Shown: positions 10,213 to 53,600, counted from the stretch's first letter. The stretch: 64,000 nt of DNA from a candidate division WWE3 bacterium (GCA_052035175.1 JBPOHV010000001.1:459338-523337), one strand, 5' to 3'. Numbers and translations are program-made. The notes: generated from the letters alone by a model not told the origin.

Positions 10213-10252
10213 TATTCCAGAGATTAAAAATACCCAACTGTATTTAATAGTT
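10213..10252 (-). terminator. Intrinsic terminator downstream of the 10258..10575 gene
   Basis: On the minus strand: atacccaact attaaatac agttgggtat followed by a T-run. Confidence 0.55.
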
Positions 10253-10257
10253 GGGTA

Positions 10258-10575: not shown

Positions 10576-10676
10576 GTGTCTCCTTTTTTAAATTTTAGTT
10601 TATAGGTTATCAGATTTGATGTAAATAGGTTACATCTTAACTTTTGTATGTGTAGCTTTTATCGTATAGTGGTGTT

Positions 10677-11204
10677 ATGAAAACTTGTGTTATAGGTCCT
10701 TCTGGCGGCGGAAAAACTTATTTAGCTACTAAATTATCCGAAAAATTGGGAATTTCACACATAAACTTGGACTATGTTTTTTATAAGCACGTTGTAGCTA
10801 AAAAGCGTGAAGCAATTCCAGAAGTTGAGTGGAAAGCAAATTTGGCTACTATTATTTCACAAAGTTCATGGATAATTGAAGGTGTAAACCCTATAAAAGA
10901 AGTTTTTGATGCTGCAGATAGTATTGTTTATTTAAGACCATCAGTTATTTTCGCTTTGTATAGACAGTGGAAAAGATATTTTACTGACCCAAAGCAAAGA
11001 AGAGAGCATGGTTTTAAGAATAATTTACTGCTGTCAAAGTATTTGATTATGCAATATATAGAAGAGCCTGATGCTACAAAAATGGATGATCCTAAATATT
11101 CACGCGTGAAGAAGTTGGATAAAGTATTACAAGGTTATGGTGATAAAGTGATTGTTTTAAAAACTAAATCCGACGTGGCTAGCTATCTGGCTAGTATGCA
11201 TTAG
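10677..11204 (+). CDS. P-loop NTPase (adenylate-kinase/FlaR-like AAA domain protein)
   Basis: Walker A GPSGGGKTYLATKL near the N-terminus, small size, and kinase-like fold cues. Confidence 0.65.
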   Translation: MKTCVIGPSGGGKTYLATKLSEKLGISHINLDYVFYKHVVAKKREAIPEVEWKANLATIISQSSWIIEGVNPIKEVFDAADSIVYLRPSVIFALYRQWKRYFTDPKQRREHGFKNNLLLSKYLIMQYIEEPDATKMDDPKYSRVKKLDKVLQGYGDKVIVLKTKSDVASYLASMH

Positions 11205-11307
11205 TATTTTGTGTGGATTCCTTATAATGGGTCAGGTATGGTTTCACACCAAGAACTATGGTGTAGTTATAACCTGGTTTTGGTGTGTGCGGATATAGAT
11301 AGGGATG

Positions 11308-12006
11308 TTAAGGGTTACTAGTATGTTGCGATTTGAAATAGCTAACTACTTCTTCCTGAAAAGCCCGCATTGATTTGTATCCTAAGTCCCACGAATCCTT
11401 TGCACTTCTAGCGTATATGTAGTCTTTACCATTTTTTGAATAATCTTTATATTTGTGAATTTTGAATTTTCCACCTGAGGGGTCAACAGTAATCCACCTA
11501 CCCTCATTTTCTAAATAAACATCAATAAATATATGTCCTTGCATTGGCGGTGTTTCTGGATTGCCTATTTCAAAAGAAGCCGCCTCGTGTTCGCACCATT
11601 CCTTCTGCAAGGTTTCCGTATATACGCAAGGTATGCCTTTGGCTAGTAATAATGCTCTGACAACATGACCAGTTTCAATACACCCGCTTATATTTCTAGT
11701 TCTCATTCTATCCGGCAATAGATTACTTTCATCTAACAGTTCATCGGCGGTTCTTAGTCTTTTATCAATTTTTAGATTCGGTTGTTGTTGGTATAGTTGT
11801 AGTAAGTCTTCTCTTGAAGGAATCATAGTCATAACAAAGTCGCATACTTCCAAAGTAAGTTTTTCTCCTTGGACTTCGTGTTTAGGATCTATTTCTTTTG
11901 CTACTGCTTTAACTTTTTCTGTTACTAATGTTTGTTCCCCTTGTTTTCTAGCAAGTTCTAGAAGCGTGTCTTCTGATTGTATATCGTTGTTTTTTAGGTA
12001 TGTCAT
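11308..12006 (-). CDS. Transglutaminase-like (Cys-His-Asp) superfamily protein
   Basis: GCIETGHVVRALLLAKGIP (catalytic Cys context), then GHIFIDVY and WITVDPSGG (His/Asp). Confidence 0.65.
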   Translation of the reverse strand: MTYLKNNDIQSEDTLLELARKQGEQTLVTEKVKAVAKEIDPKHEVQGEKLTLEVCDFVMTMIPSREDLLQLYQQQPNLKIDKRLRTADELLDESNLLPDRMRTRNISGCIETGHVVRALLLAKGIPCVYTETLQKEWCEHEAASFEIGNPETPPMQGHIFIDVYLENEGRWITVDPSGGKFKIHKYKDYSKNGKDYIYARSAKDSWDLGYKSMRAFQEEVVSYFKSQHTSNP

Positions 12007-35500: not shown

Positions 35501-36158
35501 GCAGTTTACAAACGGTGACTACACACTCACTGCAATTGCTACTGATGCGTCGAACAATACAGCGTTCTATTCTATTAATATAACTGTTGATAATGTTTTA
35601 CCTGATACTACAAACCCAACAGTTGATATAACGCAGCCAGCAGATAATACTGTAGTTGCTGGTAATGTAACTTTAACTGCTAACGCATCAGACGATGTAG
35701 CATTGTCGGGCGTCCAGTTTAAGCTTGATGATATAGACTTAGGCGTATTAGATACTGAAGCACCCTATACTGTAGATTTAGATACTACTTTATATAGTAA
35801 TAGCACTCATACAATAAGTGCAGTGGCATACGATACATCGGGAAACACAAGTACAGATCAAATTTCTTTGACTTTTGATAATGAACTGCCGGAGGCACAG
35901 ATTACAAGTCCGCTACCAGATGAAACTCTATTTGGTTTAGTTACAATTTCTGCAAATGCCATAGATAATATTGGAATCTCCACGGTACAGTTTAAACTCG
36001 ACGATTCAGAGTTAGGAGCTCTTTTGATTGAATCTCCTTATACAGTTGACTTTGACTCAACTCAGGTTACAAATGGAGCTCATACGTTATCTGTTGTTGC
36101 ACTCGATACTGTTGGTAATGTCACTAATCATACAATAAACATTATTGTTCAAAATTAG
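32514..36158 (+). CDS. Large secreted protein: N-terminal PQQ/BamB-like beta-propeller repeats, a central domain of unknown function, and four C-terminal bacterial Ig-like domains
   Basis: Signal peptide, then repeats KLYALDATNGTKLWEF and MYAIDATTGQKLWNY. The C-terminus has four ~95-aa repeats of the form P..V.IT.P.......V.....A.D..G...V.F..D......D...PY....D.T....G.HT....A.D..GN. Confidence 0.6.
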   Translation: MSIFVFVHNIINRKLFFSSTIFLTLLTSSFLVSNISYAATDWSMAGGNPQRNSWTPDEAPGGKKISCVVPIEPYVQFEAQPIVANNKVFVSTAKGLYAFNIADCTQAWANPFATELPLGNSPTYSNGKLYVSGTDRKLYALDATNGTKLWEFIADGPFEVNPLVVDGVVYAGNHDGNMYAIDATTGQKLWNYNVGAQIFQSATYNNNKIFFGAMNSKAYALNIDGTLSWSTPLPVMGWRTFWPVVYQDKIIWTRTDFARNSNYPNDFSGESSMVKERDYLFGPNPNDSGSIAGQVYTQTQPNSWLPVNSKYADLSVNPIIPGNSVVNYLEANIQSRNLFILNQSDGVENFFQLDDDNNDGLINSSDTPDAAPFLTYSGDNNTGYPPVVSGYNGLIYTRNPIYQSGVLSGSMAQGWNYGTPLVSIALSSQSGTSPDWPMDEYVGLSAGGKYLHWSVILGRNIGGVDLSKPNAAFPGFDKTRQFRYINRSQPGTNSGLFPVGFNTQTHKFFWYPSQVQPDSQLYFGHNYQTGPVVYGTNVVSTVSNSLVVFAPTGSASLKPVALSPTNTPSAATTVSNTILRERLINEITKIVTPDSNGNFVTFKPGYTNVGNFDSHAYASLGDNILDYWSNPAETITALISTLPYLDEPLKTQTRSYIQHIYATYPPYQYTHVGWVEGSFRQNFVWPEAMINNTLQKVGVSSFYSGITPFNVYSMYKYAEVGLGDPVAVYQNAKNILPPQVPSFATDTYLKTYTHVLNSYIAGYIGYVKLAQLAQTTDNYNAYITERDRLLTLRKNNWATTPPTAGINNAAPKLYFHTLITGWNFMYMVPELADYLSANILSAVNTTINMYTDKVPYPVPGTNNGPRAPYWFIPENKEVQGENGITPYYQTFGIFQAKALISKSTQTELSKYISMPVTPVGDLFYIQNLVAVLNAPDDTAPVVTITSPSNNSILTNVVSVTAAAQDNGWLSNVSFYKDADLLFTDTSAPYEYDLDTTQFTNGDYTLTAIATDASNNTAFYSINITVDNVLPDTTNPTVDITQPADNTVVAGNVTLTANASDDVALSGVQFKLDDIDLGVLDTEAPYTVDLDTTLYSNSTHTISAVAYDTSGNTSTDQISLTFDNELPEAQITSPLPDETLFGLVTISANAIDNIGISTVQFKLDDSELGALLIESPYTVDFDSTQVTNGAHTLSVVALDTVGNVTNHTINIIVQN
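35320..36150 (+). repeat. Four tandem ~285-nt Ig-like-domain coding repeats (diverged)
   Basis: Seen as a periodic protein motif (TSP.....V...V.A.A.D...S.VQFKLDD..LG). Confidence 0.5.
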
Positions 36159-36195
36159 TATTGACATACCACTTAATTTTCTTCACCATATACAC

Positions 36196-37752
36196 ATGAA
36201 TAATAAAAATTTGCCCGGAATTATACATGCAGGCCTAGCGGTATTGTCTATAGCGCTGTTAGTGCTTGCTTTTTCTTTTAGTTTTAAAATTGTAGACAGA
36301 ATGAGAGGCGAAGTAGCTGCAGCAAAATCAGCGTTACCGACTATTGGCAGAAAACCAAGTGCGGTCTCAATGGTTTTTTGGCCTAATAATTTCTCTCCTA
36401 TAAATTATCCAGTTGCCGATCATGAGCAACTTCCAGTAGAAAATAACAACATAGTAGTTTTACAAAACATGAATCACACAGGAAGTGTTGGTTATTATTG
36501 GTCTAGGTTTACAGATACTCCATTTATTTGGAAAAACCAACAAGACTCTGGTGATCAAGATACAAAAGCTAGAATGTATGGTTATACTACTGCACCTTGT
36601 GGTGTGTATCAGGATATGCGTATGGAAATTTGGCCTGTGAGAGATAATATTCAGTATTATAACCATGGCGTTGTTTTCCCAAATACTGATCAATGGGTTT
36701 GCGGACCAAATGGAGACGGTACGAACTGGTTTAAGACTGTATCCGGCTTGCCAAATGGTGGCTTTAATAATGAACCGATATATGAATTGTTTTTTAGAGC
36801 TGCACCGATAAAGCTCGGTACTAATTATTTTTGGAATATCTCAAAACTTGATGTCTGTAATCCAGATGTAGGCGGTACAGGGTGTGAACTTGCAACCTGG
36901 CCACCTGTACAAGTTTTGGGTACAGTAGTAACACCAAAACAAATGTGTTCTGATGCCACAACAAATGCTAAGAATGCTATTTCTTGGGAACCTATTGTAA
37001 ATGCAACTGATTATCAAGTTGATGCATGTGCTGGCGCTTCTTGTACAAATTTTGCAAATGTTGCTACAGTTCCTGCCACACAACCTACTAGATTTATACA
37101 TCAAGGATTAGTTGATGATACTTATTACAGATATAGAGTACGTGGACATAACTCTAATGAGAACGTGTATGGTATCTGGTCAAATCCAGTTTCTGTAAAA
37201 GTTGACCCTACTTGTACAACATTTGTTTCATCTAAAAAGTACACAGGTGCCATTACAAATGGTAATAACACAGGTCTTGTTGCTGCTGATCTTGAATGCC
37301 AAGCCATGGCTGATACAGCTACTTTAGATGGTACATTTAAAGCTTGGTTGTCAACTGATGCTGCTGGTGGTGATGCAGTTACTCGTATAAGTAACTCTAA
37401 GTATAGACTTGTCACTGGCGTTCAAGTAGCTGATAGCAAGTCAGATTTGATTGATAGTGATCCACTTACTTCAGTTATAAATAAAACTGAGCTTGGCGCT
37501 ACTTCATCAGAAAGATTTGTGTACACAGGTACACTTGCCAATGGGCAAAATGCTTCTAATACTTGCTACAATTGGACATCAAGTAACCAAGCGCACAACG
37601 CAAACGTTGGAGATACTCAAAGTACTACAGGTGCATGGACAAATTATTCTAGTACCTTGCCATGTAGTTACAACAACACGCCTCCAAATAACCCAACAAT
37701 GTATCCCATCTACTGTTTCCAGACAGATGGTTTGATTGGCAACGGTTACTAA
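36196..37752 (+). CDS. Membrane-anchored extracytoplasmic protein with a fibronectin type III-like domain and a Cys-containing C-terminal domain (ORF-track start 36145)
   Basis: An N-terminal TM helix, then an FN3-like segment ATDYQVDACAGASCTNFANVATV...YYRYRVRGHNSNENVYGIWSNPVSV. Confidence 0.5.
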   Translation: MNNKNLPGIIHAGLAVLSIALLVLAFSFSFKIVDRMRGEVAAAKSALPTIGRKPSAVSMVFWPNNFSPINYPVADHEQLPVENNNIVVLQNMNHTGSVGYYWSRFTDTPFIWKNQQDSGDQDTKARMYGYTTAPCGVYQDMRMEIWPVRDNIQYYNHGVVFPNTDQWVCGPNGDGTNWFKTVSGLPNGGFNNEPIYELFFRAAPIKLGTNYFWNISKLDVCNPDVGGTGCELATWPPVQVLGTVVTPKQMCSDATTNAKNAISWEPIVNATDYQVDACAGASCTNFANVATVPATQPTRFIHQGLVDDTYYRYRVRGHNSNENVYGIWSNPVSVKVDPTCTTFVSSKKYTGAITNGNNTGLVAADLECQAMADTATLDGTFKAWLSTDAAGGDAVTRISNSKYRLVTGVQVADSKSDLIDSDPLTSVINKTELGATSSERFVYTGTLANGQNASNTCYNWTSSNQAHNANVGDTQSTTGAWTNYSSTLPCSYNNTPPNNPTMYPIYCFQTDGLIGNGY

Positions 37753-37784
37753 AAACTAAATAGAAATTCAATGATATGCCCCGG

Positions 37785-37830
37785 TACTACAAAGTACCGG
37801 GGCATATTTTATTTGTATGAAATTCTACTT
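37785..37830 (+). terminator. Strong intrinsic terminator
   Basis: atgccccggtact acaa agtaccggggcat followed by attttatttg. Confidence 0.7.
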
Positions 37831-37863
37831 GCAAGTAATTTATATTTGGAGTAGCTTTAAAGT

Positions 37864-39351
37864 ATGAAGCTTATAAATAATACAAAACTAATAACCTTAT
37901 TATTTATTTCATCTTTTTTTATATCCATATTTATAATCAACCCTGTATTCGCAAATAGTGATTTTGCAACATCTCCTGTTAATTATCGTTTGCTAGAAAC
38001 AAGCTATGATCACTTACCCGAACAGTTAGATGAGCAGATGCTTTGGGTTTATGTAGCAGTTCCCTGGCATATTGCAGAACCTTGTGATTCTGCTAAGCGT
38101 AATTGCCCATACAACTGGAATGACCCTGCTATGGTAGAGGTTGAGGATGCAATTGACCAATACATAGCCGCAGGGAAGAAAGTCTTTATTACAATAAAAA
38201 CCACTCCTGAGTGGGCAAGAGACCCACTATGTATTACAGCTGGTGCACCTACTTGTAGGCCCAAACAGTCAGCTTGGGATAATTTTGAACGATTTGCTAT
38301 AGCGTTATACGAACGACATCCATTAATTTTTGGACTTGAAGTTTGGAATGAGCCTGATGCTCCAGCATTTGAGACTTACTATGGTGGATGGGCAAATCCA
38401 GGAGATCCCACTTATGGAGGAGTTTGGTATGGAGAGTTTTTAGCTGACATTTATCCCACTATCAAAGCTGCGTTCGGTCCAAATAGATTTATATATATAG
38501 GTGGTTTAGCTCAAACTAATGTAGTCACTCACCCAAGTATGCAGTTTTTTTCTGGTGTCATGCAAACTATAAAAAATAGATCTGCGTGTATAAATGTAAT
38601 TGGCAGTAATTATGATTTGTGCGCAGACGGAATGCTGATGCATATGTATCCTTATTGGAAGTGTCTTGACGCTACTTGTACTGGTCTAGACTGGGATGTT
38701 GCGCGCGGTCAGTTAATGCAACTTGGCAATGAAGGCATGATAAAAGGAAAAATCATGTTTAATAAACAAATAATTTCTGATAACTGCAGTACAGAGGATT
38801 GTGTTAATAAATTTCCAATTAAAATTAATGAAACTGCTTTAATAAAAAATGACGCGAGTTGTGATCAGCCACATTATGCAGAGTATAAGCTAGCTAAAAT
38901 TAAATTTTTACCAAAGTTGTATTTTAGAGCGTTAGTCAACTTGGTAGGAAATACTCCATCGATAGCATATTTTGATTATGAAGATAGCTGGCAATGCGTA
39001 GGACTCAAGTATAATAATGAAACTGAACCGTTTGAAGTTTATGACTTCTTGTCTGAAAAACTTTATAATTACTCATGGAAGTTAGACTCTTACGTTTTTG
39101 GTGCAGGCAATAATACAGAGGTTGTTAAATTAAGAGATGAATATCAGCCAAACATTCAATTTTGGGCAGTTTATAATAATTCAAGTACAGTAATGTCGTG
39201 TTTCGATATACCGGTTGCAAATAGTGTTACAGTTTATGATGTGTTTGGTATTATAATGACTCCTCGGGTAGACTTCTGTAACCCAGTTCCGGGTGTATGG
39301 AACAGAGTTACACTTTACGATAGCCCAGTATATTTTAGTATTACCAATTGA
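37864..39351 (+). CDS. Secreted TIM-barrel glycoside hydrolase-like protein (clan GH-A style NEP motif)
   Basis: Signal peptide, then FGLEVWNEPDAP, the acid/base motif typical of GH5/GH39/GH42-type enzymes. Confidence 0.5.
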   Translation: MKLINNTKLITLLFISSFFISIFIINPVFANSDFATSPVNYRLLETSYDHLPEQLDEQMLWVYVAVPWHIAEPCDSAKRNCPYNWNDPAMVEVEDAIDQYIAAGKKVFITIKTTPEWARDPLCITAGAPTCRPKQSAWDNFERFAIALYERHPLIFGLEVWNEPDAPAFETYYGGWANPGDPTYGGVWYGEFLADIYPTIKAAFGPNRFIYIGGLAQTNVVTHPSMQFFSGVMQTIKNRSACINVIGSNYDLCADGMLMHMYPYWKCLDATCTGLDWDVARGQLMQLGNEGMIKGKIMFNKQIISDNCSTEDCVNKFPIKINETALIKNDASCDQPHYAEYKLAKIKFLPKLYFRALVNLVGNTPSIAYFDYEDSWQCVGLKYNNETEPFEVYDFLSEKLYNYSWKLDSYVFGAGNNTEVVKLRDEYQPNIQFWAVYNNSSTVMSCFDIPVANSVTVYDVFGIIMTPRVDFCNPVPGVWNRVTLYDSPVYFSITN

Positions 39352-40455: not shown

Positions 40456-40526
40456 ATCAAAATTGTACGCCGTTTGGGGTTAATTGTAGATACTTGTGTT
40501 GATTTATATAGAAAATCGCTATAGAT

Positions 40527-40724
40527 CTATGTTGTTCTTGGTTTAAAGTTGGTTTCAAAAAGCAATTTTAAGTAATGTTTGTCTTGTGGGATCATGTTCA
40601 AAGCATCTAAATCTTTCGCATCTACCCATAGCATGCTTTGCCCTTCATTCAAGTTTAATTTTTGATCAGGATTATATTTTGCCACCAAATAAGCTATAGA
40701 GAGACGGGTAAATAGGAGCATCAT
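40527..40724 (-). pseudogene. Possible remnant of a NUDIX-like hydrolase C-terminus (gene fragment)
   Basis: A 65-aa ORF bounded by a stop codon six codons upstream of its Met. It sits inside an unusually long 525-bp non-coding stretch. The NUDIX assignment is weak. Confidence 0.2.
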
Positions 40725-40980
40725 CTGTCCGTTGTTGTATTAAGGCTTGGTTACTTTCGTTATAAAGTACTATATTAGCTACTCTTCGAATTGATTCCAT
40801 ATTTATCTTTGGTGACCCAACTGAGATTAAACTGGAACCCCCTACTTTCATCTATTATTGATTTGGTAGGTGTGCTTAAGAGTCCAAGTCCGTCTATAAC
40901 TTTAGCTTTCAACTAAGCACTTATAGCTCATCTATTACTACCCAATATGTACTAGAAACCCTCAGTACTACTTTCAAGTC

Positions 40981-41886
40981 CTATTTCTTCTTTGACTTTC
41001 GCTCCTTTGCAATATCCTCGACAAAAAACTTGTTATACGTTTTAAAACTGCAGTTCAATATCTTGTATTGCTTAAGTCTGGTGGCAAAGTACAGATAAAA
41101 TGTAAACGCGGTAGCTAGAACTAAATCGATCCTATCAGGGTTTTTATCAAGCAATAATGACTCTTCCCCAGCGGTATCCTTTACCCAAAAATGCTGCAAA
41201 CCAGTAATGGGCAAATGGGTATATTCTGACAAATATCTATATACAAGTGTGTACATATGCTCCACACCACCGTTTTTAGTTTTCTGGCGTTTTTTTAATC
41301 TCTTGTCTACGCGTGATGCGCGATCGTATAGACTACCCCAAACCTTTCTAAACTCATCTTTGTTTTCATATGAAATATTTAGGGAGTCTTTGTACTTTTC
41401 AAGCTCTTTTAATGGGAGTTCTCTCATTTTATCCAGGATACTATCAGGAAACGTAGAAGGTCTTAGGTGGGGATATTTACTGTAGACACTTTGTAGCTCG
41501 TTCACTACGGTTACCTTATAGTAACTGCCCTCAATTACATAATGATATAGTGGATTATTGTTAGGTGACCCTAAAATGTAATGTGAGTTGATCCATGTTT
41601 CTGATATGCTCCTTAGTATTACGATGGCAGCATCCGGTCTACTCTGTTTACAAAGTTCAAATATAGCCTCTGTATAGGAGTTAATTGCGGCGAACGCCGA
41701 CAGTACATAATATTGTTTTGGCGATAGTTCGCTTTTAACAATTGTTTTTTTGACAAGTTCTTCTTTTGTGTAATTTATAAGCTCTGCTAGCGTATTTAAG
41801 ATTTTTTGATTTTCTTCACTTAATTTTGGCAACTCATTCATACAAGGATTATAGCTTTTATTACTATTGTTATATAATCGAAGCAT
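40981..41886 (-). CDS. Hypothetical protein (element cargo)
   Basis: Intact 301-aa ORF. Lys-rich C-terminus. Confidence 0.5.
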   Translation of the reverse strand: MLRLYNNSNKSYNPCMNELPKLSEENQKILNTLAELINYTKEELVKKTIVKSELSPKQYYVLSAFAAINSYTEAIFELCKQSRPDAAIVILRSISETWINSHYILGSPNNNPLYHYVIEGSYYKVTVVNELQSVYSKYPHLRPSTFPDSILDKMRELPLKELEKYKDSLNISYENKDEFRKVWGSLYDRASRVDKRLKKRQKTKNGGVEHMYTLVYRYLSEYTHLPITGLQHFWVKDTAGEESLLLDKNPDRIDLVLATAFTFYLYFATRLKQYKILNCSFKTYNKFFVEDIAKERKSKKK

Positions 41887-41888
41887 AA

Positions 41889-41981
41889 CTTAGCCGGTCA
41901 CTATGTTTTGAACGACACTAAATGTGTCTTGAACCCAAGAAGGGGCTACCTTTTTATTGGGTTCAAGGCTGACCGGCTAAG
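41889..41981 (+). repeat. Nested inverted-repeat element: a 12-bp perfect IR (cttagccggtca / tgaccggctaag) enclosing a 5-bp hairpin and an 11-bp perfect IR (cttgaacccaa / ttgggttcaag)
   Basis: Read directly from the sequence. It folds as a three-way junction if transcribed. Confidence 0.45.
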
Positions 41982-42008
41982 GACTACGAAAGGTAGTCCC
42001 TTTTTTAT
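41981..42008 (+). terminator. Intrinsic terminator-like hairpin plus T-tract immediately after the nested IR element
   Basis: ggactac gaaag gtagtcc cttttttatgg. Confidence 0.5.
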
Positions 42009-42034
42009 GGTATTAATTATGGGTAATTTCTAAT

Positions 42035-42373
42035 ATGTATATACTTTTGATTATATTTACAGTCTACTTAGCCAAGAAGTATTTTGAACTAAGGGAAGGC
42101 TATGCAGATCTATTTAAGGCAGATGGATTTATGACTGCGCGGCTCACAGAAGAGGTTGGTATCCGGCGTGTGGTTGAAATGTCCTGTGACTATATATGCA
42201 CCTTATCCGGTGCAGAAAAAGAACGAGCTGTACGGAACTTGAACCAGAGATTTGGTATTGCGATTAAGCTTAACTCAGATGGGAGCGTTACACGGGAGAC
42301 TGTAAACAAAATAGCGGAAATTTTTAGTGCAAGAAATCCAAGATTACCTATAGACAATGCTACTGAAAATTAA
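42035..42373 (+). CDS. Hypothetical small protein (element cargo)
   Basis: Intact 112-aa ORF with an N-terminal hydrophobic segment. Confidence 0.4.
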   Translation: MYILLIIFTVYLAKKYFELREGYADLFKADGFMTARLTEEVGIRRVVEMSCDYICTLSGAEKERAVRNLNQRFGIAIKLNSDGSVTRETVNKIAEIFSARNPRLPIDNATEN

Positions 42374-42465
42374 GATAGGAGGGGGGTACCTTTGCAGTTG
42401 TCCTGTTTGTAAATAGTTATGGCAAACAGACCTTGTACAATTTTGTATCAAATTTTTTGATATTA

Positions 42466-42804
42466 CTACTCCCGGCTGTATTTATACAGATCAATTATTT
42501 CCTGAGGTACCTCTTCATATTTTGAGTAAAGAGCCTCAATTTTAGTTTGTATAACTGCCTGTTCTTTGAACAAGTTAGCTACGGCAGCATAGTCTTTTTC
42601 TAACAAAGCTTTGTTTTCTTCGCGGCATAAGTTGTACATTTGGTTGAAGTCAGAGCCCATAGTACCCATATCAGTACCTATTTCGTAAAGTTTATCGTTT
42701 TGCGTTTGTAGCTCTCTTATAAGTTTTTCTTTTTGAAACGCATTTATACCAAGACCAACAACTAACATTGTGAAAAGTATTGTGACCGCTTTACTCTTAC
42801 TCAT
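42466..42804 (-). CDS. Hypothetical membrane-anchored coiled-coil protein (ORF-track start 42948; MSKSK start at 42804 is likely)
   Basis: TM helix AVTILFTMLVVGLGINAF followed by a helical region. Confidence 0.4.
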   Translation of the reverse strand: MSKSKAVTILFTMLVVGLGINAFQKEKLIRELQTQNDKLYEIGTDMGTMGSDFNQMYNLCREENKALLEKDYAAVANLFKEQAVIQTKIEALYSKYEEVPQEIIDLYKYSRE

Positions 42805-42889
42805 GTTTCTGATCGTAGCACTTCCCCCACCCGGAAACAATAAATTAGCTATACCTCGTCTATAAAACAAATAGTGGTAAAATGACCTC

Positions 42890-43927
42890 ATGAACATATT
42901 TTTGGCGCCTCGTTCAAACGAAACATCATATAAAAACTTTTTGAGCACTATTGAAAGTGGTGTTGACTACTCAATAATTGAACCTCATCTAGACGAACAA
43001 GGAAAACAACTATTGGCCTCCGAAGATAAAATCTTTGCATGGGGTACTAAAGACTCTAAAAAAAGTTCATGGGAGAAGCTATTACCAGGTGATGTAGTGT
43101 TATTTTACAAGGGGAGAGAAGGCGAAGAACGCGAAGGCAAGCTTGTTTATGCAGGCAGATTACTATACAAACAAAACAGTAAGGCGTTGGGCACCTCTTT
43201 ATGGCCACCTAAAACCGGAGAAGAGCCTTGGACATGTATTTTCTTTTTAAACGATCTTAAACCAGTTTATATACCAATAACCGACATAGCGGATTTTGCA
43301 GGTTACAGTAGAAATCTTATTGTTCAAGGTTTTATGCCTATTAATGAGGATGGTGTAAATGCTATTTTGGCAAAGTTTGGAGATGTTGATAAATTTATTA
43401 AACATTACTCAGCGGATGCCCCAGTAAGTGCGAACGATTTGGAAGAAGAAGAAAACCACATTAGTGCTCATTCTGAAGCACAACTTCTATTACTGAAAAT
43501 AGGTACATTACTTGGGTTTGATACTTTTTGTCCTGATAAAGGTGCGGAGGCATACGGGGAAAAGTTAATCGACTATATTTCTTTACGAGAAGTCCCTAAG
43601 AGGTTTCTTGGTGAGGATATTTTAAAACTAGTCACTCAAATAGATGTAATTTGGTTTAAAGACGAGGTTCCAGTCGCAGCATTTGAAGTAGAACACAGCA
43701 CAAAGATTTTAAGTGGCATGCAGCGGCTGTGCCAGCTTAGTCCACTATCGACTAGGCTATACATAGTAGCCTCGACTAAGGATTATCATTTGTACGAAAA
43801 ATTTATTAATACAGACCCATATTATAAAAATAAAGGCTCTTTTAGATTTAGAAGCTACAAACAACTAGAAAGCTATTTTAAGTCAGTATCTGAGTTCACG
43901 GCCATACGTGACGTATTTATGGAGTAA
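42890..43927 (+). CDS. PUA/EVE-like domain fused to a PD-(D/E)xK-like nuclease domain; a candidate modification-dependent (Type IV-like) restriction endonuclease
   Basis: The N-terminal KIFAWGTKDSKKSSWEKLLPGDVVLFYKG...KLVYAGRLLYK fits the PUA-like EVE pattern (W...GD.v.FY). The C-terminal HSEAQLLLLKIG...IDVIWFKDEVPVAAFEVEHSTKI has E, then D, then the E.E..K spacing of restriction-endonuclease-fold proteins. Confidence 0.45.
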   Translation: MNIFLAPRSNETSYKNFLSTIESGVDYSIIEPHLDEQGKQLLASEDKIFAWGTKDSKKSSWEKLLPGDVVLFYKGREGEEREGKLVYAGRLLYKQNSKALGTSLWPPKTGEEPWTCIFFLNDLKPVYIPITDIADFAGYSRNLIVQGFMPINEDGVNAILAKFGDVDKFIKHYSADAPVSANDLEEEENHISAHSEAQLLLLKIGTLLGFDTFCPDKGAEAYGEKLIDYISLREVPKRFLGEDILKLVTQIDVIWFKDEVPVAAFEVEHSTKILSGMQRLCQLSPLSTRLYIVASTKDYHLYEKFINTDPYYKNKGSFRFRSYKQLESYFKSVSEFTAIRDVFME

Positions 43928-43947
43928 ATTACATTGGATATGAACAT

Positions 43948-45408
43948 ATGTCTAAAGTAGGTAGAAATGACAAATGTCGATGTGGTTCTGGGAAGAAATA
44001 TAAATACTGTTGCGGCATTGATGGTGCACCAAAACTCCCAACAAATGTTAATAGACCCATAAGAGATAGAAATTTGATGATGATGCATGCAGTTGATGAT
44101 ATTTTCAAGTTTGATAAAAAAACTACATGGGATGATTTTCGAAAAAATATCAATGATGAACAAGTAAGAGAGTTTTATAGTTTTATGGATTGGCTGTGGC
44201 CGCTTGAAACTAATGTGGAAGCACTCTTACCTAAACCGTCAGATAAGCTTCGCGGCTTATACATTGGTGATATTAAGCCAGACAAAATTAGTACAAATAT
44301 ACTGCGCTACAGTTTATACACTGATGAAATTGTTGTTGTTAATCCATTTCCACATCCAAGAGCAATGTCCCCAGATTACAATCCGATTTTAAACCCCGGT
44401 CAATATAAACAAGATACATTGCAGATGATTTTTTTTGTAATGTCCTTATACAATTGGGTAGGTAAAGGTATTGTTCATTTAGTCCCTAACCCTATGGATT
44501 TCAATTATAAATTGCGTGATTCGTTCTTTTCTTCTGCTGAAGCACGGTGGAAAGATATCACTCCCGAAGATATGGAAAGCATATTAAGTGAAGAGGAAAA
44601 AAAGGAACTTGAAGAAGAAGGTAAGGATATGATTTTGAACACAATATCTCGTATGCCAGTAGATGCCCAAAAGGAGTTTATAAAACGACATCTACCTTCG
44701 ATTTCAGATACTGAAATGAACGCTCAAATCGACTTTATAAAGAGACAACGTAAAGCTAATGTATTATGGTTAGATCAAGATATGCCGGCAAACACGCCAG
44801 AACTTAAGGCTATGAGGTTAGGTGGCAATTTAGAACTAGGTTTGTATCTTAGTCAGTTAACAGGGTCCTATATGTATACAAATCGTAAATCCCAATGGAA
44901 CGAAATCTTATCGGTGCAGGTCAATAGCAATGATGAACAAGATATTTGGTCACCACTTACCAATGCGTTTCAATCGCTAGATTTCCAGTTTTTAGACAAT
45001 GTAAATTATGCTTTTATAGATAGATTGCAGGAAGAACAACGGCTTGAAAGTTTTAGAAACTACTTGCGTCGTGTGTGGGAAAGCATTAATAGTCCCACTC
45101 AAGCGTCAGAGGGTACTGTGCGCGAGTTTAAGGATGAACTTAAAGAGCAATACGCTATTGCAAAAGAGGATTGGAAGAAAATAGACATTACATTGAGAGA
45201 TTGGTTACTGAAAAAAAGCATACTCAACTCTGGCGCTGTTGCAGGAGCAAGTCAAATTCTTACAGGAAACATTAATTTGATAGCTCCAATGCTTGGGTTC
45301 TGCCTAGATGGTGTTAACCAGCTGCTTCAAGCAAATGATAAAAGAAAAGAGTTTAAGACAAAAGTACCCTTATCTGTATTTATTGATTTGGAAAATCATA
45401 GGCCATAA
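43948..45408 (+). CDS. SEC-C-motif (CxCGSGKKYKxCC zinc-binding) protein; the ~450-aa remainder has unknown function
   Basis: N-terminal KCRCGSGKKYKYCCG. It starts 20 nt after the nuclease-like gene. Confidence 0.5.
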   Translation: MSKVGRNDKCRCGSGKKYKYCCGIDGAPKLPTNVNRPIRDRNLMMMHAVDDIFKFDKKTTWDDFRKNINDEQVREFYSFMDWLWPLETNVEALLPKPSDKLRGLYIGDIKPDKISTNILRYSLYTDEIVVVNPFPHPRAMSPDYNPILNPGQYKQDTLQMIFFVMSLYNWVGKGIVHLVPNPMDFNYKLRDSFFSSAEARWKDITPEDMESILSEEEKKELEEEGKDMILNTISRMPVDAQKEFIKRHLPSISDTEMNAQIDFIKRQRKANVLWLDQDMPANTPELKAMRLGGNLELGLYLSQLTGSYMYTNRKSQWNEILSVQVNSNDEQDIWSPLTNAFQSLDFQFLDNVNYAFIDRLQEEQRLESFRNYLRRVWESINSPTQASEGTVREFKDELKEQYAIAKEDWKKIDITLRDWLLKKSILNSGAVAGASQILTGNINLIAPMLGFCLDGVNQLLQANDKRKEFKTKVPLSVFIDLENHRP

Positions 45409-45418
45409 ACACTTGATT

Positions 45419-45802
45419 ATGCCCAAGATACTTCGCACACCCAAAAACAAGTATGGCTTAAGTATAAAGCAGCGTATGGTGATAGAGGATATAGTATCTG
45501 ATATCAAACATAACAGACCGTTTAACCCCGTAACATCACATAAAAAATACTACAATGCCAAAAATAAGTTGAGTTTATCAGTTATAACTCATGAAAACTT
45601 AAATAGACCTAACTTTAAAGCAGCTCTTTTTGAGGCTTTGGAGTATGAAGGTGTATTAGGAGTATCGGGAAATGCACCACATGTTCTCATTTCGGGTTTA
45701 AACGCTTATCAAATTATAAATGGCGAAAAAGTACCGGACTATAAAACACGGCTAAAATATATCCAAGAAATAAATAAAATAACCGGTGTTTATCCAAAAT
45801 AA
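45419..45802 (+). CDS. Hypothetical small basic protein immediately upstream of the recombinase (ORF-track start 45308 overlaps the previous gene)
   Basis: 127 aa from MPKILRTPKNK. No motif. Confidence 0.4.
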   Translation: MPKILRTPKNKYGLSIKQRMVIEDIVSDIKHNRPFNPVTSHKKYYNAKNKLSLSVITHENLNRPNFKAALFEALEYEGVLGVSGNAPHVLISGLNAYQIINGEKVPDYKTRLKYIQEINKITGVYPK

Positions 45803-45816
45803 GCTATAATTACCTT

Positions 45817-45885
45817 GTGCTCATCTATATGTTTGTAAGCAGAAATGACCGTCTTAGTCATCTATAAAAATATGGATGAGCACAC
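45817..45885. promoter_or_regulatory. Imperfect 14-bp inverted repeat (gtgctcatctatat / atatggatgagcac) with a central small hairpin, 20 bp upstream of the recombinase start
   Basis: Read from the sequence. A candidate operator or recombination site. Confidence 0.3.
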
Positions 45886-45903
45886 TAGGGCGGTCTTTTT
45901 TGT

Positions 45904-47616
45904 ATGAAAAACACACTTGAAGGTAAAAACGCAGTAATAATAGCTAGAGCATCAACCACAAAACAATTTGATGCTGGAGATACTCTGGATCACCAAATAA
46001 ATCAATGTGAAATATATATTAAGAAAATGGGTATGCACCTAATTAAAGCGTTTACGTTAGTTGAGTCAGGTAGAAATGAGGAAAGGGAGTTTTTCACGGG
46101 TATATTAAACTACTGTTTAAATCCTAAAAACAGGGTTCAAGCAGTTGTTTTTAAAGACATATCCAGATTTACCAGGCAAGGAAGCAATACCTATACAAAT
46201 CTGAAGCAACAGTTATCTCGTGCCAATATACGGTTAGTAGATACTATGGGGATAATACAAGAAGAAGAAAACATTCTCGCTCACTTAAATGTTGTTTTTG
46301 ATTGGAGTCTTCGTTCACCGTCCGAAAGAACGGAGATAATGGAAGCTGAGGAAGCTCGTAATGAAGTAAAAAATATATTAAGCAGGACTATTGGCGCGGA
46401 AATCCAATATGTACAAGATCCCGCTAGCTACTCTGTTCGTCAACCTGAGTTTGGCTATAAGAACATTAAAACAGACGTTGATGGGAAAAAACGAACTATT
46501 AGAGCACCTGATGAAGCAGAAGCTCATTGGGTAAGGGAAATGTTTAGATTACGAGCAGAAGGTATATTAAGTGATGAAGAAATTGCACAAGACCTAAATA
46601 ATAGGGGTTTTGTTACGAGGACATTTAATAGAAGGGATAAGGAAACTAAAAAGATTGTAGGTAAGTCCGGTGGCAAGAAGTTAACTGCGAAAACCTTGAA
46701 AAAGTACATTCACAAAACAGTTTATGCCGGAGTTGTACAGGAAACTTGGGGAGGAACAACACTTTTAACTGTAAAATCAAATTTGTGGGAGGGACTAGTT
46801 ACAATCGAGACATTTAATAAAGCTAACAAAGGAAAGGTTTACATTGAAGTTCGGGATGATAGAACAGCGCATATCATGTACAACGTTAAAGATAAAAGGC
46901 GCACTCGTAGTAAAAATAACGCTTTGTTTCCATATAAAAACTATGTTTTATGTCCTATATGTAAGCGCACTCTCATGGGTAGTGCTTCTACGGGGAAGCT
47001 AGGTGGGAAGTATCCCTACTATCATTGTGAACGCAACCACAAAAGATTTAGTGTTAAAACAAGCGATATGGACAAAACAATTGAAAACTTTGTCGCTAGC
47101 CTAAAGTTTAAGGAAAGCTTTGCCAACGATTTTAGACTTGTGGTCAGGGATTTGTATCAACAGGAAAAGAAAAGGCTTCTAGAAAACACCGTAGAGGCAT
47201 CAAACCTTTTAGTTGAGCTAAAATCGCAGCAGGATCTTCTAATGGATAACCTTGTCGTGACCAAGTCCGCTTTAGTACGAGCTGAGTTGGAGAAGAAGTA
47301 CGAAGAGCTTGAACTAGATATTGCGCTAGCCATAGATTCCAGAAATAAATCTGAAGCAAAAGAGCTAGATCTTTACTATTTCGAAAATCAACTTATAAAG
47401 CTAATGGAAAACCCGAGGAAATTGTTGTCACAAGGCGCTGAAACAGTTGGTATAGGTAATATGTTTAGTAGGTTCTTTAGTGAGCCTCCCACATACGAAG
47501 ATTTAGTTAAGGGAACCCCAAAATTAACGCCTATTTTCGAGTTATCTAGAAATCAAGAAGTATCAAAGGATTTAATGGTGACCCTACGGGGAATCGAACC
47601 CCGGTTATCAGGATGA
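45904..47616 (+). CDS. Large serine recombinase (resolvase/invertase-type catalytic domain, recombinase domain, zinc ribbon, coiled coil)
   Basis: The catalytic N-terminus AVIIARASTTKQ is the Y.RVST..Q family signature. The zinc ribbon is CPICKRT...YYHCERNH, followed by a long helical C-terminus. The final 13 codons read through the tRNA-Glu T-arm and acceptor-stem sequence, giving GIEPRLSG. Confidence 0.85.
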   Translation: MKNTLEGKNAVIIARASTTKQFDAGDTLDHQINQCEIYIKKMGMHLIKAFTLVESGRNEEREFFTGILNYCLNPKNRVQAVVFKDISRFTRQGSNTYTNLKQQLSRANIRLVDTMGIIQEEENILAHLNVVFDWSLRSPSERTEIMEAEEARNEVKNILSRTIGAEIQYVQDPASYSVRQPEFGYKNIKTDVDGKKRTIRAPDEAEAHWVREMFRLRAEGILSDEEIAQDLNNRGFVTRTFNRRDKETKKIVGKSGGKKLTAKTLKKYIHKTVYAGVVQETWGGTTLLTVKSNLWEGLVTIETFNKANKGKVYIEVRDDRTAHIMYNVKDKRRTRSKNNALFPYKNYVLCPICKRTLMGSASTGKLGGKYPYYHCERNHKRFSVKTSDMDKTIENFVASLKFKESFANDFRLVVRDLYQQEKKRLLENTVEASNLLVELKSQQDLLMDNLVVTKSALVRAELEKKYEELELDIALAIDSRNKSEAKELDLYYFENQLIKLMENPRKLLSQGAETVGIGNMFSRFFSEPPTYEDLVKGTPKLTPIFELSRNQEVSKDLMVTLRGIEPRLSG

Positions 47617-47650
47617 AAACCTGATGTCCTGACCATTAGACGATAGGGCC
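47576..47650 (-). tRNA. tRNA-Glu (anticodon UUC) with encoded CCA
   Basis: The minus strand reads GGCCCTA TC GTCT AATGGTCA GGAC A TCAGG TTTTCAT CCTGA TAAC CGGGG TTCGATT CCCCG TAGGGTC A CCA. The cloverleaf folds cleanly. Confidence 0.85.
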
Positions 47651-49844: not shown

Positions 49845-50631
49845 TTATATCTACCCCGCGTTTTAATTTGACGCCTTTTTGAATTTCTTCTTTCTCTTTA
49901 CCTCTTGTTATGTCCAAAACTTTTCCGTCTTGTATTCTGACTGCTGATTTTCCATATCTAAGATATTCTAGGTCGTGCGTAACCATTAATATTGTACGTC
50001 CTGTATTATTTAAATCTACTAGTATTTGTAATAAGTTTTGACCAGACTCGTAATCAAGGTTTCCTGTAGGTTCATCGGCGATAATTAATTCTGGGTCGGT
50101 AACCAAAGCTCGTGCGAGTGCAACCTTTTGCTGTTGACCTCCGGATAGCTCTGTAGGACGGTAGCTCGCCCAGTTTTGCATACCCATACTTTCTAGGGAT
50201 TTCCAAGCTTTTTGCAAAGCAGTTACGCGGTCTACTCCTAATAAAGATAAAGGAAATGCAATATTCTCAATTACTGAAAGCGATTTGACCCAGTTGGCTT
50301 GTTGATAAACCATACCTATATGTTTTTTTCTAAATCCAGATCTATCATCGTCAGTTGCTAATGCGTACAAATCTGTATCCAAACAAAAAACCTTCCCAGA
50401 TGTTGGTATTTCCAAACCTAGTAAGACGTGTAATAAAGTTGATTTACCAGATCCAGATGGACCAAGAATAATTGCAAAATCACCGCGAGGCACTTCAAAC
50501 GAAATGCCTTTTAGTACTTCGATAGTTTGTGTACCTACGATAAAAGACTTGGTTATCTCTGTTGCTTTTAAAACAATTGCGGGTGCCGCTGGTGCTGCTG
50601 CCTCAGCAGTTTGTGCTGGAATATCACTCAT
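49837..50631 (-). CDS. ABC transporter ATP-binding protein (MacB/LolD/FtsE-like)
   Basis: Walker A GPSGSGKST, signature LSGGQQQKVALARAL, Walker B IIADEPTGNLD, H-loop VTHD. Confidence 0.9.
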   Translation of the reverse strand: MSDIPAQTAEAAAPAAPAIVLKATEITKSFIVGTQTIEVLKGISFEVPRGDFAIILGPSGSGKSTLLHVLLGLEIPTSGKVFCLDTDLYALATDDDRSGFRKKHIGMVYQQANWVKSLSVIENIAFPLSLLGVDRVTALQKAWKSLESMGMQNWASYRPTELSGGQQQKVALARALVTDPELIIADEPTGNLDYESGQNLLQILVDLNNTGRTILMVTHDLEYLRYGKSAVRIQDGKVLDITRGKEKEEIQKGVKLKRGVDING

Positions 50632-53600
50632 TTTTTAAGACCTCCCAAGAATCCAAACACTTCACCCAAATTTGTAATTACCAAGTTCAATGCGCTGTCA
50701 GAAGATTTTGGCGTAATGCTTACAGTGTCTATAGATTTTGCTTCATTGGTTGCTTTGTCTTTAGAAAGAGCTCGTAAATGATAAACTTTTGAAGTATTTA
50801 AACCTGAAATTACCACGACGTGGTTGTAAGTTAGGTTTGAGTCTTCTTGCGTCTTTTGAGAATAGGTTGTTCCTGTACCTTCGCCAAATTCCACTTGAGA
50901 TGTTCCGGGTTCGTCTGTATCCCAACTTACTACCAATTGCGCTGTAGCTACTTGTTCACTTGTATTAACGATATTTCCTTCGACTCGTAAGTTTGAAATC
51001 AAAGGAGGTCTCGTATCTGTTGCAGTTGTTAATTGTTGTGGATCGCTCGAGGCCTGATTCCCTGCTTTGTCTATACCTTTTACTACCATTGTATAAGGTG
51101 TTTCTGGGAATAATCCTTTTATTAATAACCTATGTACACCTTTAACGAGCTTAACATTAACTTCGTCTCTTGCTTGTGATGCATCGCTGCTTGGGTAATA
51201 CGTAATTATTGATGAAACTTCTGTATTAGTTGACCATGATACTAAAACTGCTGGTTGTGCACTACCTTTGACTTGTTGGATTTTGACATTATCTATTTTT
51301 GGTCGTGGTAAAGTTTCAAACGACAAAATACTTCCTTCATACTCTTCGCCTTCTGTATCAAAAGTGTTTATTTTATAATAGTATTTTGTACCATCTTCCA
51401 AGCTATCTATTGTTGTATTATAAGTTGTTTCGCTTGTAGAAGTTGAAAGTTCAACAGAACCTCCAAATGCAGAAGTTTTGCCATAATAAATTTTAACTTT
51501 TGAAGAACTATTTACGGTATATTGCAGAATTACACTGTTAATGCCAACTGTTTTGGCTGTTGGATCAGTTACAGTCGGCGCTGGTGCAGTCTCAAAAGTA
51601 AATTCATCTGTTAGTCCAGTATTTCCATCTTCATCAGTCCACTTTGCTACTGCATAATAATTTGTTCCTGGTGAAAGATTTGTAAGCGTTATTTCGTGTG
51701 CAGTTACTTGAGTTGAGTTTGAAGGCTCTTCGTCAAAATAATCACCCTCACTCGTACCAAATTGTATTTTTGAATCGCTGGCTCGATCTGTGGACCATGT
51801 TATTGTAGCTTGCTTTGTTGTTATGCCAGTTACTTCTGGTTCACTTTCTAGCGCTGCAGCTTCTGTAAATTTACCTGTAGGCAATAAGGAAACAGCTGCA
51901 GTAGATGCGCCGCAGTTGCTTACGCTATCGCAAGCTTTCACTTTATAATAGTATGTTTCTTGTTCTAGTGATGTATCGATATACGCTGATCCTGTTGTAG
52001 ATGCTAATAATGTATATGTACTATCGTCAGAAGATCTATATATTTCATATTCTTCTACGCCAGAACCTACATCAGTAGGAGCTGTCCATGATAATGCCAA
52101 CCTCCATGCTGATGTACTTTTGATAGAAACGTCTGAAATTTCTAGATTTAACGGAATGCCTGGTGCAGATGTATTGGCTGTGAAACTTACACTAGTGTAA
52201 GATCCATAATTTATAGTTCCTCCTACATCATCTCCGTTTTTTGCAACTAAATAAAAAGTATTCAAACCTACTTGTGTAGCAAATGAGCTCGCCGAAACAG
52301 ATGTAGCTCCAGCGCTTGTATAAGTACATGTATCTACAGAAGGTAGTGTATTTACTGTATAACAATATGTCAGGTCAGATGAGTCACCGCTATACGTTGC
52401 AGGAATTTGCCAAGAAAACGCAAAAGAGTTAGTTGTATTTGTGCTAGGTGTAGCAGTCAAAAATTGTGGTGCCGATGGTCCATCTCCTCCATAATAGTAT
52501 GTAGCTTGTAATGGTGTTGCCGATACATTACCCGCTGTATCAATTACTCTTAAATAAAATGTATTTGCGCCTGTTTGATATGCAGCAGAAGGGATATCAA
52601 TACTAGTAGAAGCAGTAGTCGACGACCAATCGCTTAGATCTCCACTTGGTGCACCAGTTTTATATTGATATCCTGCTAAACCTGATCCGGTATCTGATGC
52701 AATTCCATCCCCAGACGAGGGCCATGAAAATGTAAACGAATTTGTAGATGCATAACCAGAAGGTGTAACAGTAACTGTACTTGGGTTGCTTGGATTTGTA
52801 TTATCAAACTTATATATAAAAGGTGCGTACACTGTGCTTAAGTTTTGTGCATTATCTTTGGCTTGAATTCGCAAATAATACGTCGATCCGCTCGACAACC
52901 CTGAAGCTGAGTATGATGTACCCACTTGAAATACTCCTGCTGTAGATGGTGTTGCAGTATTATCTGTTCCAAAATAAACATAATAACCAGCAACTCCAGC
53001 TTCTGTGTCTGATGCGCCGCTCCAAGAGAAATACGGTGTTGTATACGTATACCAAGTGTTTGTTGTCAAAGATGTTCCTCCGCCAGAAACATTTAGAGCT
53101 GTCAAACTACTTGGTGGGTTAGGATTTGTTGTATCTGCTTCAGCTTCAACTGTTATAGAATTTAGTGTTACAGCTTGTGTACCATCTCCATCCAAGATAG
53201 CTTGCCATTTAATACCGCTAGAGCTTATAGAAAAAGTGTCTATATTGGTATCAATCGTTGAACTAGCGTTGGCTTGTGCGGTAGACGCAGATGTAGCCCA
53301 AGCTCCGCCATCCCAATATTTCCAAGTAGTGCCGCCATCGTTAGACAACCGATAAGTTATTGCTCCGCCATTTGCAGTTTCTGAAACTACAAATCCGGTA
53401 TATGTATATATATCTTCAGTAAACACGGCTGTCGCATTTTGTATAGTTTGTGCCGATGTAGAATAAGCTGTTGTATTAAATGATGGTAGTGCAGTATTGC
53501 TTATTCTCACTTCGTCTATATTGCCATTAAAAAATCCTTGAGGACTACCCTGACTAGTGCTTCCATAAGTTGTTCCTAGTAAAACTGCTTTTGCGGTATT

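Follow-up and report, generated by a model that had tools for sequence, protein, structure and literature searches.

The DNA analysed here (the window, a 64-kb stretch at JBPOHV010000001.1:459338-523337 from a candidate division WWE3 bacterium) is AT-rich, with a GC content of about 0.36, and comes from a Patescibacteria-type genome. Eight co-localised genes in its right-hand part end in a large serine recombinase gene that overlaps tRNA-Glu. All of these features, described in an original prediction made from the sequence alone, are present and are corroborated by a second assembly, made independently from this organism (Logan SRR34217543), in which eight genes of 64, 301, 112, 100, 345, 486, 108 and 570 amino acids (aa) were called for the interval in an arrangement identical to that of the window. 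None of the eight received a housekeeping assignment in Pfam, PADLOC, PHROG and NCBIfam scans; the original prediction had said this of seven. The edge opposite the tRNA (40456-40980) had been described as a 525-bp non-coding, decayed stretch; it indeed holds no intact gene, but the element itself starts at 40810, so that 40456-40809 is host DNA, and the interval is made up of a decayed NUDIX gene, the left attachment core (40810-18) and a detached segment of the integrase tail (40818-40913). The locus is very probably a 6,766-bp integrative mobile island (40810-47584; the core counted once), put into the 3' end of tRNA-Glu(UUC) by its own large serine integrase (Table 1).

Table 1. Features of the island and its immediate borders, in window coordinates (ORF, open reading frame; AF2, AlphaFold2)
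Feature	Position	Strand	Basis or remark
Decayed NUDIX hydrolase gene, host flank	40527-40800	-	Translation MESIRRVANIVLYNESNQALIQQRTDDAPIYPSLYSLFGGKI, then a stop; C-terminal part in another frame
attL core TGGTGACCC	40810-40818	+	Same as attR core; complement of the tRNA-Glu 3' end GGGTCACCA
Putative detached native C-terminal tail (P' arm and tail ORF), QLRLNWNPLLSSIIDLVGVLKSPSPSITLAFN, then a stop	40818-40916	+	Family register; L007 tail
DUF5677 protein, 301 aa	40981-41886	-	Pfam PF18928, 1e-16
112-aa ORF without family assignment	42035-42373	+	ORF call; domain scans empty
Small ORF of about 100-111 aa, backbone gene	42466-42801	-	58% identity to L007 8789-9139
345-aa EVE/YTH-like reader with PD-(D/E)xK nuclease (NmeDI_C)	42890-43927	+	AF2 and Foldseek; PADLOC
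486-aa protein, N-terminal SEC-C zinc motif, rest without assignment	43948-45408	+	Pfam SEC-C, 5.7e-6
127-aa small-terminase-like protein	45419-45802	+	Phage homologues; fold matches
22-nt inverted repeat, control region upstream of integrase	45816-37 / 45863-84		Repeat search
Large serine integrase, 570 aa as integrated	45904-47616	+	Resolvase, Recombinase, Zn_ribbon_recom
attR core TGGTGACCC	47576-47584	+	Predicted crossover inside GTGA (47578-47581), tRNA positions 74-71
tRNA-Glu(UUC), intact target	47576-47650	-	ARAGORN; Rfam tRNA, 66 bits

The Pfam Resolvase match of the integrase (6.6e-10) covers residues 10-115, where S17, R15 and Q21 are invariant or nearly so among 44 relatives, and the Recombinase domain (1.1e-7) scores above its cut-off. 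The Zn_ribbon_recom match (19.4 bits) is below its 25.3 cut-off, yet C350, C353, H374 and C375 are invariant in the alignment of the 44 relatives, and PF13408 is listed in the precomputed Pfam annotation of relatives. The PHROG integrase family matches the 570-aa protein at 6e-38, and the sequence gave no match in the PDB. The last 41 nt of the ORF are antisense to the 3' part of tRNA-Glu, and the protein ends in ...MVTLRGIEPRLSG: residues 1-560 are element-encoded, and the last 10 (LRGIEPRLSG) come from the antisense strand of the tRNA gene.

The tRNA-Glu gene is intact and a 9-bp copy of its 3' end lies at the element's distal end (40810-18), which is the layout of a tRNA island. A dinucleotide core had been anticipated at the two edges; a core repeat is found at both, but it is 9 bp long. 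The boundaries were located by comparison with L007, a 468-kb contig of another Patescibacteria genome (GCA_964385105.1), whose integrase P0002 is 60% identical to that of the window. In a blastn comparison, window positions 45418-47586 align with L007 9520-11677, 42489-42715 with 8815-9041, and 40810-40867 with 8150-8207; the homology thus begins exactly at the left core and ends at 47586, exactly at the right core. The flanks are unrelated, being the NUDIX remnant and tRNA-Glu in the window, and another recombinase gene and a PLD-like gene in L007. Because the homology starts and stops at the attachment cores amid unrelated flanks, the island boundaries are taken as real. The original proposal of an integrative island at tRNA-Glu is therefore supported by this homology, together with the attachment-site pattern, the far-end tail described below, the defence-type cargo of relatives and the modified-base reader fold of the window's own nuclease.

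The L007 element is 3.5 kb long and carries different cargo; the backbone in common consists of three genes, for the integrase, the 127-aa protein and the product of the small ORF on the minus strand. In this last product a coiled-coil-like region comes after a hydrophobic segment at the N-terminus, and in the independent assembly it was called as 100 aa. The L007 element has gone into another large serine recombinase gene, at its 3' end; the product of that gene has 558 aa and is 20% identical to the window integrase. The 558-aa recombinase now ends in ...SSMVT followed, across the junction, by QLSLEWKPLISSIIDLVEILQMP, a homologue of the detached tail in the window, and P0002 ends in ...MVS followed by LTSLSWNTFSTVYSRLTKN, a tail like those of the family in general; AATGGTGA is common to both junctions. 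On the simplest reading of these sequences, the two L007 recombinases appear to have swapped tails by site-specific recombination, and the target would be the intragenic attP of another element, itself resembling a tRNA end. L007 6589-11734 is thus an element within an element, and the host recombinase gene has a Toprim primase gene upstream and type IV secretion genes downstream.

The segment at 40818-40913 is, as judged from its sequence, the missing native tail of the integrase, lying at the far end of the element. Translation across the window attL gives LVT followed by QLRLNWNPLLSSIIDLVGVLKSP, and across the left L007 junction MVT followed by QLSLEWKPLISSIIDLVEILQMP. The window tail has L, W and N in the register of uninserted family members, its opening is almost identical to the QLSLNWN of the tail in the related locus L033, and over 26 aa it shares 65% of its residues with the counterpart at the L007 junction. 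Over tail codons 11-27, the window and L007 have 2 identical codons, 9 synonymous and 6 non-synonymous differences, which indicates that the distal tail is conserved as a peptide, beyond the DNA alone. The tail includes TGGAAC at 40833-40838, and the family-derived pattern GTGA-N17-TGGAAC has a single match in the window, both strands counted, at 40812-40838, where 0.09 would be expected.

This layout recurs across the integrase family. C-termini were compared among 57 database homologues and 80 metagenomic loci, and 69 loci had the stop codon on the contig. The integrase ORF meets an antisense tRNA gene in 51 of these 69, with the stop codon inside the tRNA gene in 44 and read-through in 7. 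The 44 stops fall in tRNA-Glu (15), Lys (8), Val (8), Trp (7), Arg (4), Asp (1) and Ile (1), and three more loci have tRNA-like integrase tails that were not called by ARAGORN. Non-tRNA tails were found in 7 loci and in database proteins P0011/16/30/40, where a W-N tail stands in a fixed register (x-V/A-x, three residues, L/F, x, W, N, T/A, I/F, E...). When attL was sought in related loci as an exact repeat of at least 8 nt, only chance-level repeats were found, the opposite-strand controls being equally long, and a hidden Markov model (HMM) of the peptide tail was used in its place; the 44-sequence integrase alignment was too diverse for locus retrieval. Among integrated loci outside its training set, the tail HMM found detached tails in L033 (E 1e-7), L017 (8e-6) and L060 (2e-3), and one iteration added L016, L019, L012, L054 and L082. 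The detached tails in HMM-found loci are all upstream of the integrase on the same strand, and on the minus strand there was no match at E<0.1. Each detached tail follows a tRNA 3'-end remnant with a 4-9-bp core in common with the integrase/tRNA junction, and the integrase-tail pairs imply element sizes of 3.1-10.4 kb. A search for the integrase family in viral contigs confirmed none.

Several loci depart from this simple layout. L056 (9168, 9821, 10556) and L075 (1543, 4345) have multiple attP'-type tail segments per locus, one segment of this set lying on the downstream side of an integrase whose native tail is already in place, and these repeats may be tandem att remnants or serial insertions. 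A sub-clade (L020, L021, L023, L026, L027, L029, L038, L045, L049, L070, L071 and L083) reads the antisense tRNA in another frame, with tails such as ...LVPKCEPYRIRTCD, and its targets are mostly tRNA-Lys, Arg, Glu and Asp. L057, L058 and L082 have the integrated-type layout, with the detached tail about 7 kb upstream (in L082, integrase at 10001-11710 and tail at 4681), and their integrases end in the non-tRNA SVNVFEQIRTYFKGSGG, which suggests a non-tRNA target. In L097 (3446-7864 and 14792-19145), the native-tail integrase P0016 has a type I-C-like CRISPR-Cas gene set on one side and, on the other, a relaxase gene together with those of a coupling-protein-like ATPase and a DnaG primase, a setting which indicates that the clade is also carried by mobilisable or conjugative elements.

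For the anatomy of the right half-sites, 18 P' arms were aligned with 45 B' arms, the central codon serving as anchor; its middle base is the complement of the tRNA discriminator base; the codon is Val where the tRNA has A73 and Ala where it has G73. TGGAAC occurs at positions 22-27 in 17 of the 18 P' arms, and the T-loop/T-stem motif TCGAAC occurs at positions 17-22 of the B' arms (47594-47599 in the window tRNA-Glu). The similarity between the P' and B' profiles is highest at a shift of +5 (0.41, versus 0.34 for the next best shift and about 0.25 at most others). The motif T[G/C]GAAC therefore stands 5 bp farther from the crossover in attP', where it encodes the W-N codons, than in attB', where it is the universal T-loop. 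The Asn codon of the W-N dipeptide is AAC in 17 of 17 cases, although AAC makes up only 13-58% of Asn codons in the integrase genes (joint p 4.5e-8, with relatedness ignored), and this indicates that the dipeptide is constrained as DNA. The cores of four attL/attR pairs intersect at G-T/C-G-A/G, tRNA positions 74-71, which locates the crossover. In the published model of serine integrases, the zinc-ribbon domain binds a motif at positions 16-24 in attP that is 5 bp nearer the centre in attB (PMC3783163), and the offset between TGGAAC and TCGAAC fits this geometry. Recognition of the universally conserved T-loop would explain the reach of the clade over seven tRNA species. In the reconstructed attP and attB, dyad symmetry gave no clear signal (11/22 at best). 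The boundaries, the detached tail, the family-wide tRNA overlap and the 5-bp motif shift are all read from comparison of sequences.

Taken together, these data suggest the following scheme. In the free circle, the integrase ORF (45904-47583) would continue into 40818-40913 and encode about 592 aa, ending in QLRLNWNPLLSSIIDLV..., and attP would lie inside roughly the last 35 codons of the integrase gene. The circular junction is reconstructed as ...GTATCAAAGGATTTAATGGTGACCCAACTGAGATTAAACTGGAACCCCC... and the empty site as ...CCATATTTATCTTTGGTGACCCTACGGGGAATCGAACCCCGG.... Recombination would take place within the GTGA of the common 9-bp core, corresponding to C74, the discriminator base and the upper end of the acceptor stem. 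Integration would regenerate tRNA-Glu, leave the 32-codon native tail at attL, the far end of the element, and fuse the integrase body to 10 antisense-tRNA codons at attR. The C-terminus would accordingly change from a reconstructed free form, ...MVT+QLRLNWNPLL... (32 aa), to the integrated ...MVT+LRGIEPRLSG, and excision would be expected to need a directionality factor.

The conserved tail of the free-form integrase would be amphipathic (xVx-3aa-L-x-W-N-T-I-E...W), and its exchange on insertion could have a regulatory consequence, to which the conservation of the distal tail as a peptide points indirectly. We propose, tentatively and with considerable doubt, that the intragenic attP of the clade is a built-in state switch, in which insertion swaps the conserved amphipathic tail for tRNA-antisense residues and thereby alters the directionality, stability or activity of the enzyme. 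It would be the serine-integrase counterpart of integration-dependent immunity, coupled to a zinc-ribbon recognition of the T-loop that would let the clade move between tRNA species and phyla.

The cargo had been predicted to be accessory and possibly anti-phage, with one nuclease-like gene, and both expectations agree with what was found. The AF2 model of the 345-aa protein has a predicted local distance difference test score (pLDDT) of 88. Its N-terminal half matches, in Foldseek, 6p0g, the N-terminal domain of Thermococcus TgMcrB on 5-methylcytosine DNA (E 1.4e-6, template modelling score 0.67 on the target) and also THYN1/EVE and YTH domains; in relatives this domain is joined to a McrB-type AAA_5 ATPase or an HNH nuclease. 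The C-terminal half is of the NmeDI_C type (PADLOC REase_II, 2e-7) and weakly matches BsaWI and EcoT38I in Foldseek. A Pfam scan found no methyltransferase domain in the element. The modelled fold and the domain matches make it likely that the protein is a type IV, modification-dependent restriction enzyme. DUF5677 is reported in a preprint to be enriched beside serine recombinases in defence contexts (PMC12632615). In the 486-aa protein, PADLOC and NCBIfam match the SEC-C motif only. PADLOC recognised no complete known defence system, scoring only the nuclease domain and the SEC-C motif. Among related elements, L017 carries SIR2, HerA and a trypsin-like protease, L012 has AbiEii, L060 has a nuclease of the staphylococcal type and the DNA-packaging protein gp3, and L016 has a DnaG-type primase with a zinc finger; the cargo in the window may likewise act in defence.

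A second island is present in another region of the same genome (L090 1-15597, Logan SRR34217543_23228). It contains a DUF5677 gene (54% identical to that of the window), an EVE-nuclease gene (80-84% aa identity), a 124-aa homologue of the 127-aa gene, and a YaaC-family gene in the place of the SEC-C gene. Its serine recombinase is a different one, of 468 aa, adjoining tRNA-Lys. The 3' end of the recombinase ORF contains 21 nt that exactly repeat the tRNA-Lys 3' end (7351-7371), a degenerate copy lies at 1823, and the intact tRNA-Lys (7499-7573) is 128 nt beyond the in-ORF copy; these copies may reflect tandem or serial insertions.

The 127-aa gene next to the integrase raises a more specific possibility, namely that the island is a phage satellite, similar to phage-inducible chromosomal islands (PICIs) or tycheposons, which excises on helper infection and uses a small-terminase-like protein for its own packaging or for blocking the helper, the restriction cargo being secondary. 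The protein is 91% identical to its L007 counterpart. Its phage homologues (152-160 aa) occur in contigs with genes for TerL, portal and major capsid protein (MCP), and the named BFVD matches of its AF2 model (pLDDT 77) are, with few exceptions, 'Terminase small subunit' proteins (E 1.5e-3 to 0.5). The best PDB fold match is the prophage protein 2ao9 (E 0.8), which is regarded as a small-terminase-like oligomer. The gp3 gene of the related element L060, the 3-10 kb size range, which is typical of satellites, and the inclusion among tycheposons of elements with large serine recombinases at tRNA genes all speak for a satellite. On the other hand, the fold matches are at E 1e-3 or weaker, the element versions lack the roughly 33-aa coiled-coil-like C-terminal extension of the phage versions, the window has no capsid-remodelling gene, and in phage contigs the homologue is 3-4 kb upstream of TerL and not adjacent to it. 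Considering both sides, a satellite seems possible, though short of an even chance. The 127-aa protein itself is a moderately supported candidate for a truncated small-terminase-like protein, and it may have a terminase function. The presence of a terminase-like gene beside the integrase suggests an interaction with phage packaging and would fit a satellite-like lifestyle or packaging interference. The intergenic region 45803-45903, with its inverted repeat, is 91% identical to L007 and may be an operator or a packaging-related site. The DNA identity to L007 of the gene plus this region (81-94%, versus 55-75% for the integrase gene) points to recent module exchange or DNA-level constraint. No domain of a replication module of its own (primase, rep, helicase) was detected in any window ORF with Pfam, PADLOC, PHROG or NCBIfam. 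A prophage was rejected, the element being bounded at 6.8 kb without capsid, tail or lysis genes.

A number of results weigh against a mobile island as inferred here. Compositional skew between the island and its flanks had been suggested as a check, and it failed to appear: GC is 0.368 versus 0.360, and the tetranucleotide distance is only +1.1 standard deviations, with 14 of 115 sliding windows more deviant. The anticipated empty tRNA-Glu site was not found among relatives, no close relative being there to compare: the nearest relatives of the MacB/FtsX permease beside the island are only 52-60% identical at the aa level (WWE3, Saccharibacteria and 'Patescibacteria group' metagenome-assembled genomes), and those in species-representative genomes are non-syntenic, with no tRNA-Glu nearby. 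The exact attB junction pattern had 0 matches in metagenomes, the attP junction pattern of a circular form had 0 matches, and so had the window/L007 P'-arm pattern in viral contigs; the sole other assembly of the organism carries the same insertion. The 9-bp repeat alone is not significant, since chance 9-10-mers are shared with the upstream 10.9 kb, and over the whole window the tail HMM ranks the site only fourth (E 1.7). The left half-sites showed no obvious mirror-image motif by eye, the L007 target is attP-type and not attB-type, a result that does not follow from the simple 5-bp model, the island yielded no identifiable recombination directionality factor, and the terminase assignment rests on the fold matches mentioned above. 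Finally, the NUDIX gene is decayed (weak Pfam NUDIX match, E 0.047): about 10 nt separate its start codon from the attL core, and stops and a frameshift interrupt its NUDIX box. Before the insertion it would have directly followed tRNA-Glu, and the insertion may have cut it off from its promoter and inactivated it; its decay indicates that the insertion may be old and not very recent.

Some of these results would also be expected if the island had once integrated in this way and were now a fixed, immobile remnant, its integrase functionless or domesticated. The native-like composition, the decayed neighbour, the pattern searches that found neither an empty site nor a circular form, and the shared insertion in the only other assembly all point in this direction. 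Nevertheless, the ORF of the integrase is unbroken and retains the catalytic and zinc-binding residues that are invariant in its family, the detached tail remains an open frame of 32 codons with a conserved peptide sequence, and the control region and TerS-like gene, at 81-94% identity to another element, suggest recent exchange. We regard such a remnant as unlikely. That there is no mobile element at all, but a chromosomal serine recombinase of the invertase/resolvase type beside a tRNA gene, with the overlap an accidental read-through, is highly improbable. Antisense tRNA sequence is often without stop codons, and the missing compositional signal would suit this explanation, but an accident would hardly recur in 51 of 69 related loci over seven tRNA species, end the L007 homology precisely at both cores or place a detached tail at the far end of the element, and the protein has the domain set of large serine integrases, not of invertases, with the PHROG integrase match to agree. 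An integrative island inserted into tRNA-Glu by its own integrase thus accounts best for the locus, and the island may still be mobile at present.

Outside the island, the window encodes a 1949-aa protein (50628-56477, minus strand) with many 'GGD..NS.W' units and fibronectin-like repeats, which adjoins an ABC/FtsX pair, and two more large, probably secreted proteins to the left of the island (36145-39351, plus strand). These are typical Patescibacteria surface proteins.

Patescibacteria have small genomes and few recognised mobile elements, and serine integrases are the main tools for large DNA insertion, their site choice and one-way behaviour being actively researched. An island that brings defence genes to a tRNA gene is nothing unusual; the novelty lies in the variant integrase system behind it. 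A clade that targets tRNA 3' ends via the T-loop would, if true, extend tRNA-gene targeting, so far seen as a trait of tyrosine integrases, to the serine class and offer integrases with predictable, near-universal landing sites. The position of attP inside the integrase gene means that the integrase would exist in two forms, and the clade would therefore give a natural test of the extreme C-terminus against directionality. The island also shows a route by which defence genes move in Patescibacteria, namely the EVE-reader nuclease and DUF5677 here, and SIR2-HerA and AbiE in relatives.

Targeting of tRNA genes by large serine integrases is mentioned sporadically at best. For tRNA 3' ends it is stated to have gone unreported up to 2020, predicted cases numbering 14 of 297 (PMC7192596), and the tycheposon preprint lists 27 of 937 elements with a large serine recombinase. 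The large recombinase-discovery papers make no mention of tRNA, and targeted searches of the available literature found no serine integrase described as having attP within its own reading frame. The A118/LI, Bxb1, phiC31 and SPbeta SprA integrases resemble the present one in combining resolvase, recombinase and zinc-ribbon domains with short att sites and a very short common core, and in a right-arm motif whose position differs by 5 bp between the attP and attB sites, as described for the motif of the zinc-ribbon domain (PMC3783163). Unlike them, the window clade targets tRNA 3' ends and has attP inside the integrase ORF.

The cargo also has known counterparts. Type IV enzymes such as McrBC with EVE/YTH N-terminal domains and the EVE-HNH fusions likewise combine a reader and a nuclease with no methyltransferase, whereas in the window the reader is fused to an NmeDI_C-type PD-(D/E)xK nuclease in one 345-aa chain. 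The RADS study (PMC12632615) similarly links serine recombinases to defence genes, DUF5677 being among the enriched domains, but it uses the recombinase as a marker and, unlike here, defines no att sites, tRNA targeting or integration mechanism. Tycheposons and PICI-like satellites are small cargo islands at tRNA genes with a site-specific integrase as well, some with terS-like genes; the present family differs in its hosts, Patescibacteria and other phyla, the window element has no replication module, and the intragenic attP is a feature of the window clade that is not described in the literature consulted on these satellites.

Among systems in which integration changes a gene product, SSV-type archaeal integrases have their own gene split on integration. 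In the integration-dependent immunity of mycobacteriophage BPs and its relatives, attP likewise falls within a coding sequence, and in BPs integration alters the C-terminus of the repressor (PMC4557955). Both use tyrosine integrases, whereas the enzyme here is a serine integrase, and where BPs affects its repressor, the present system would affect the integrase itself, with only the last roughly 32 residues exchanged.

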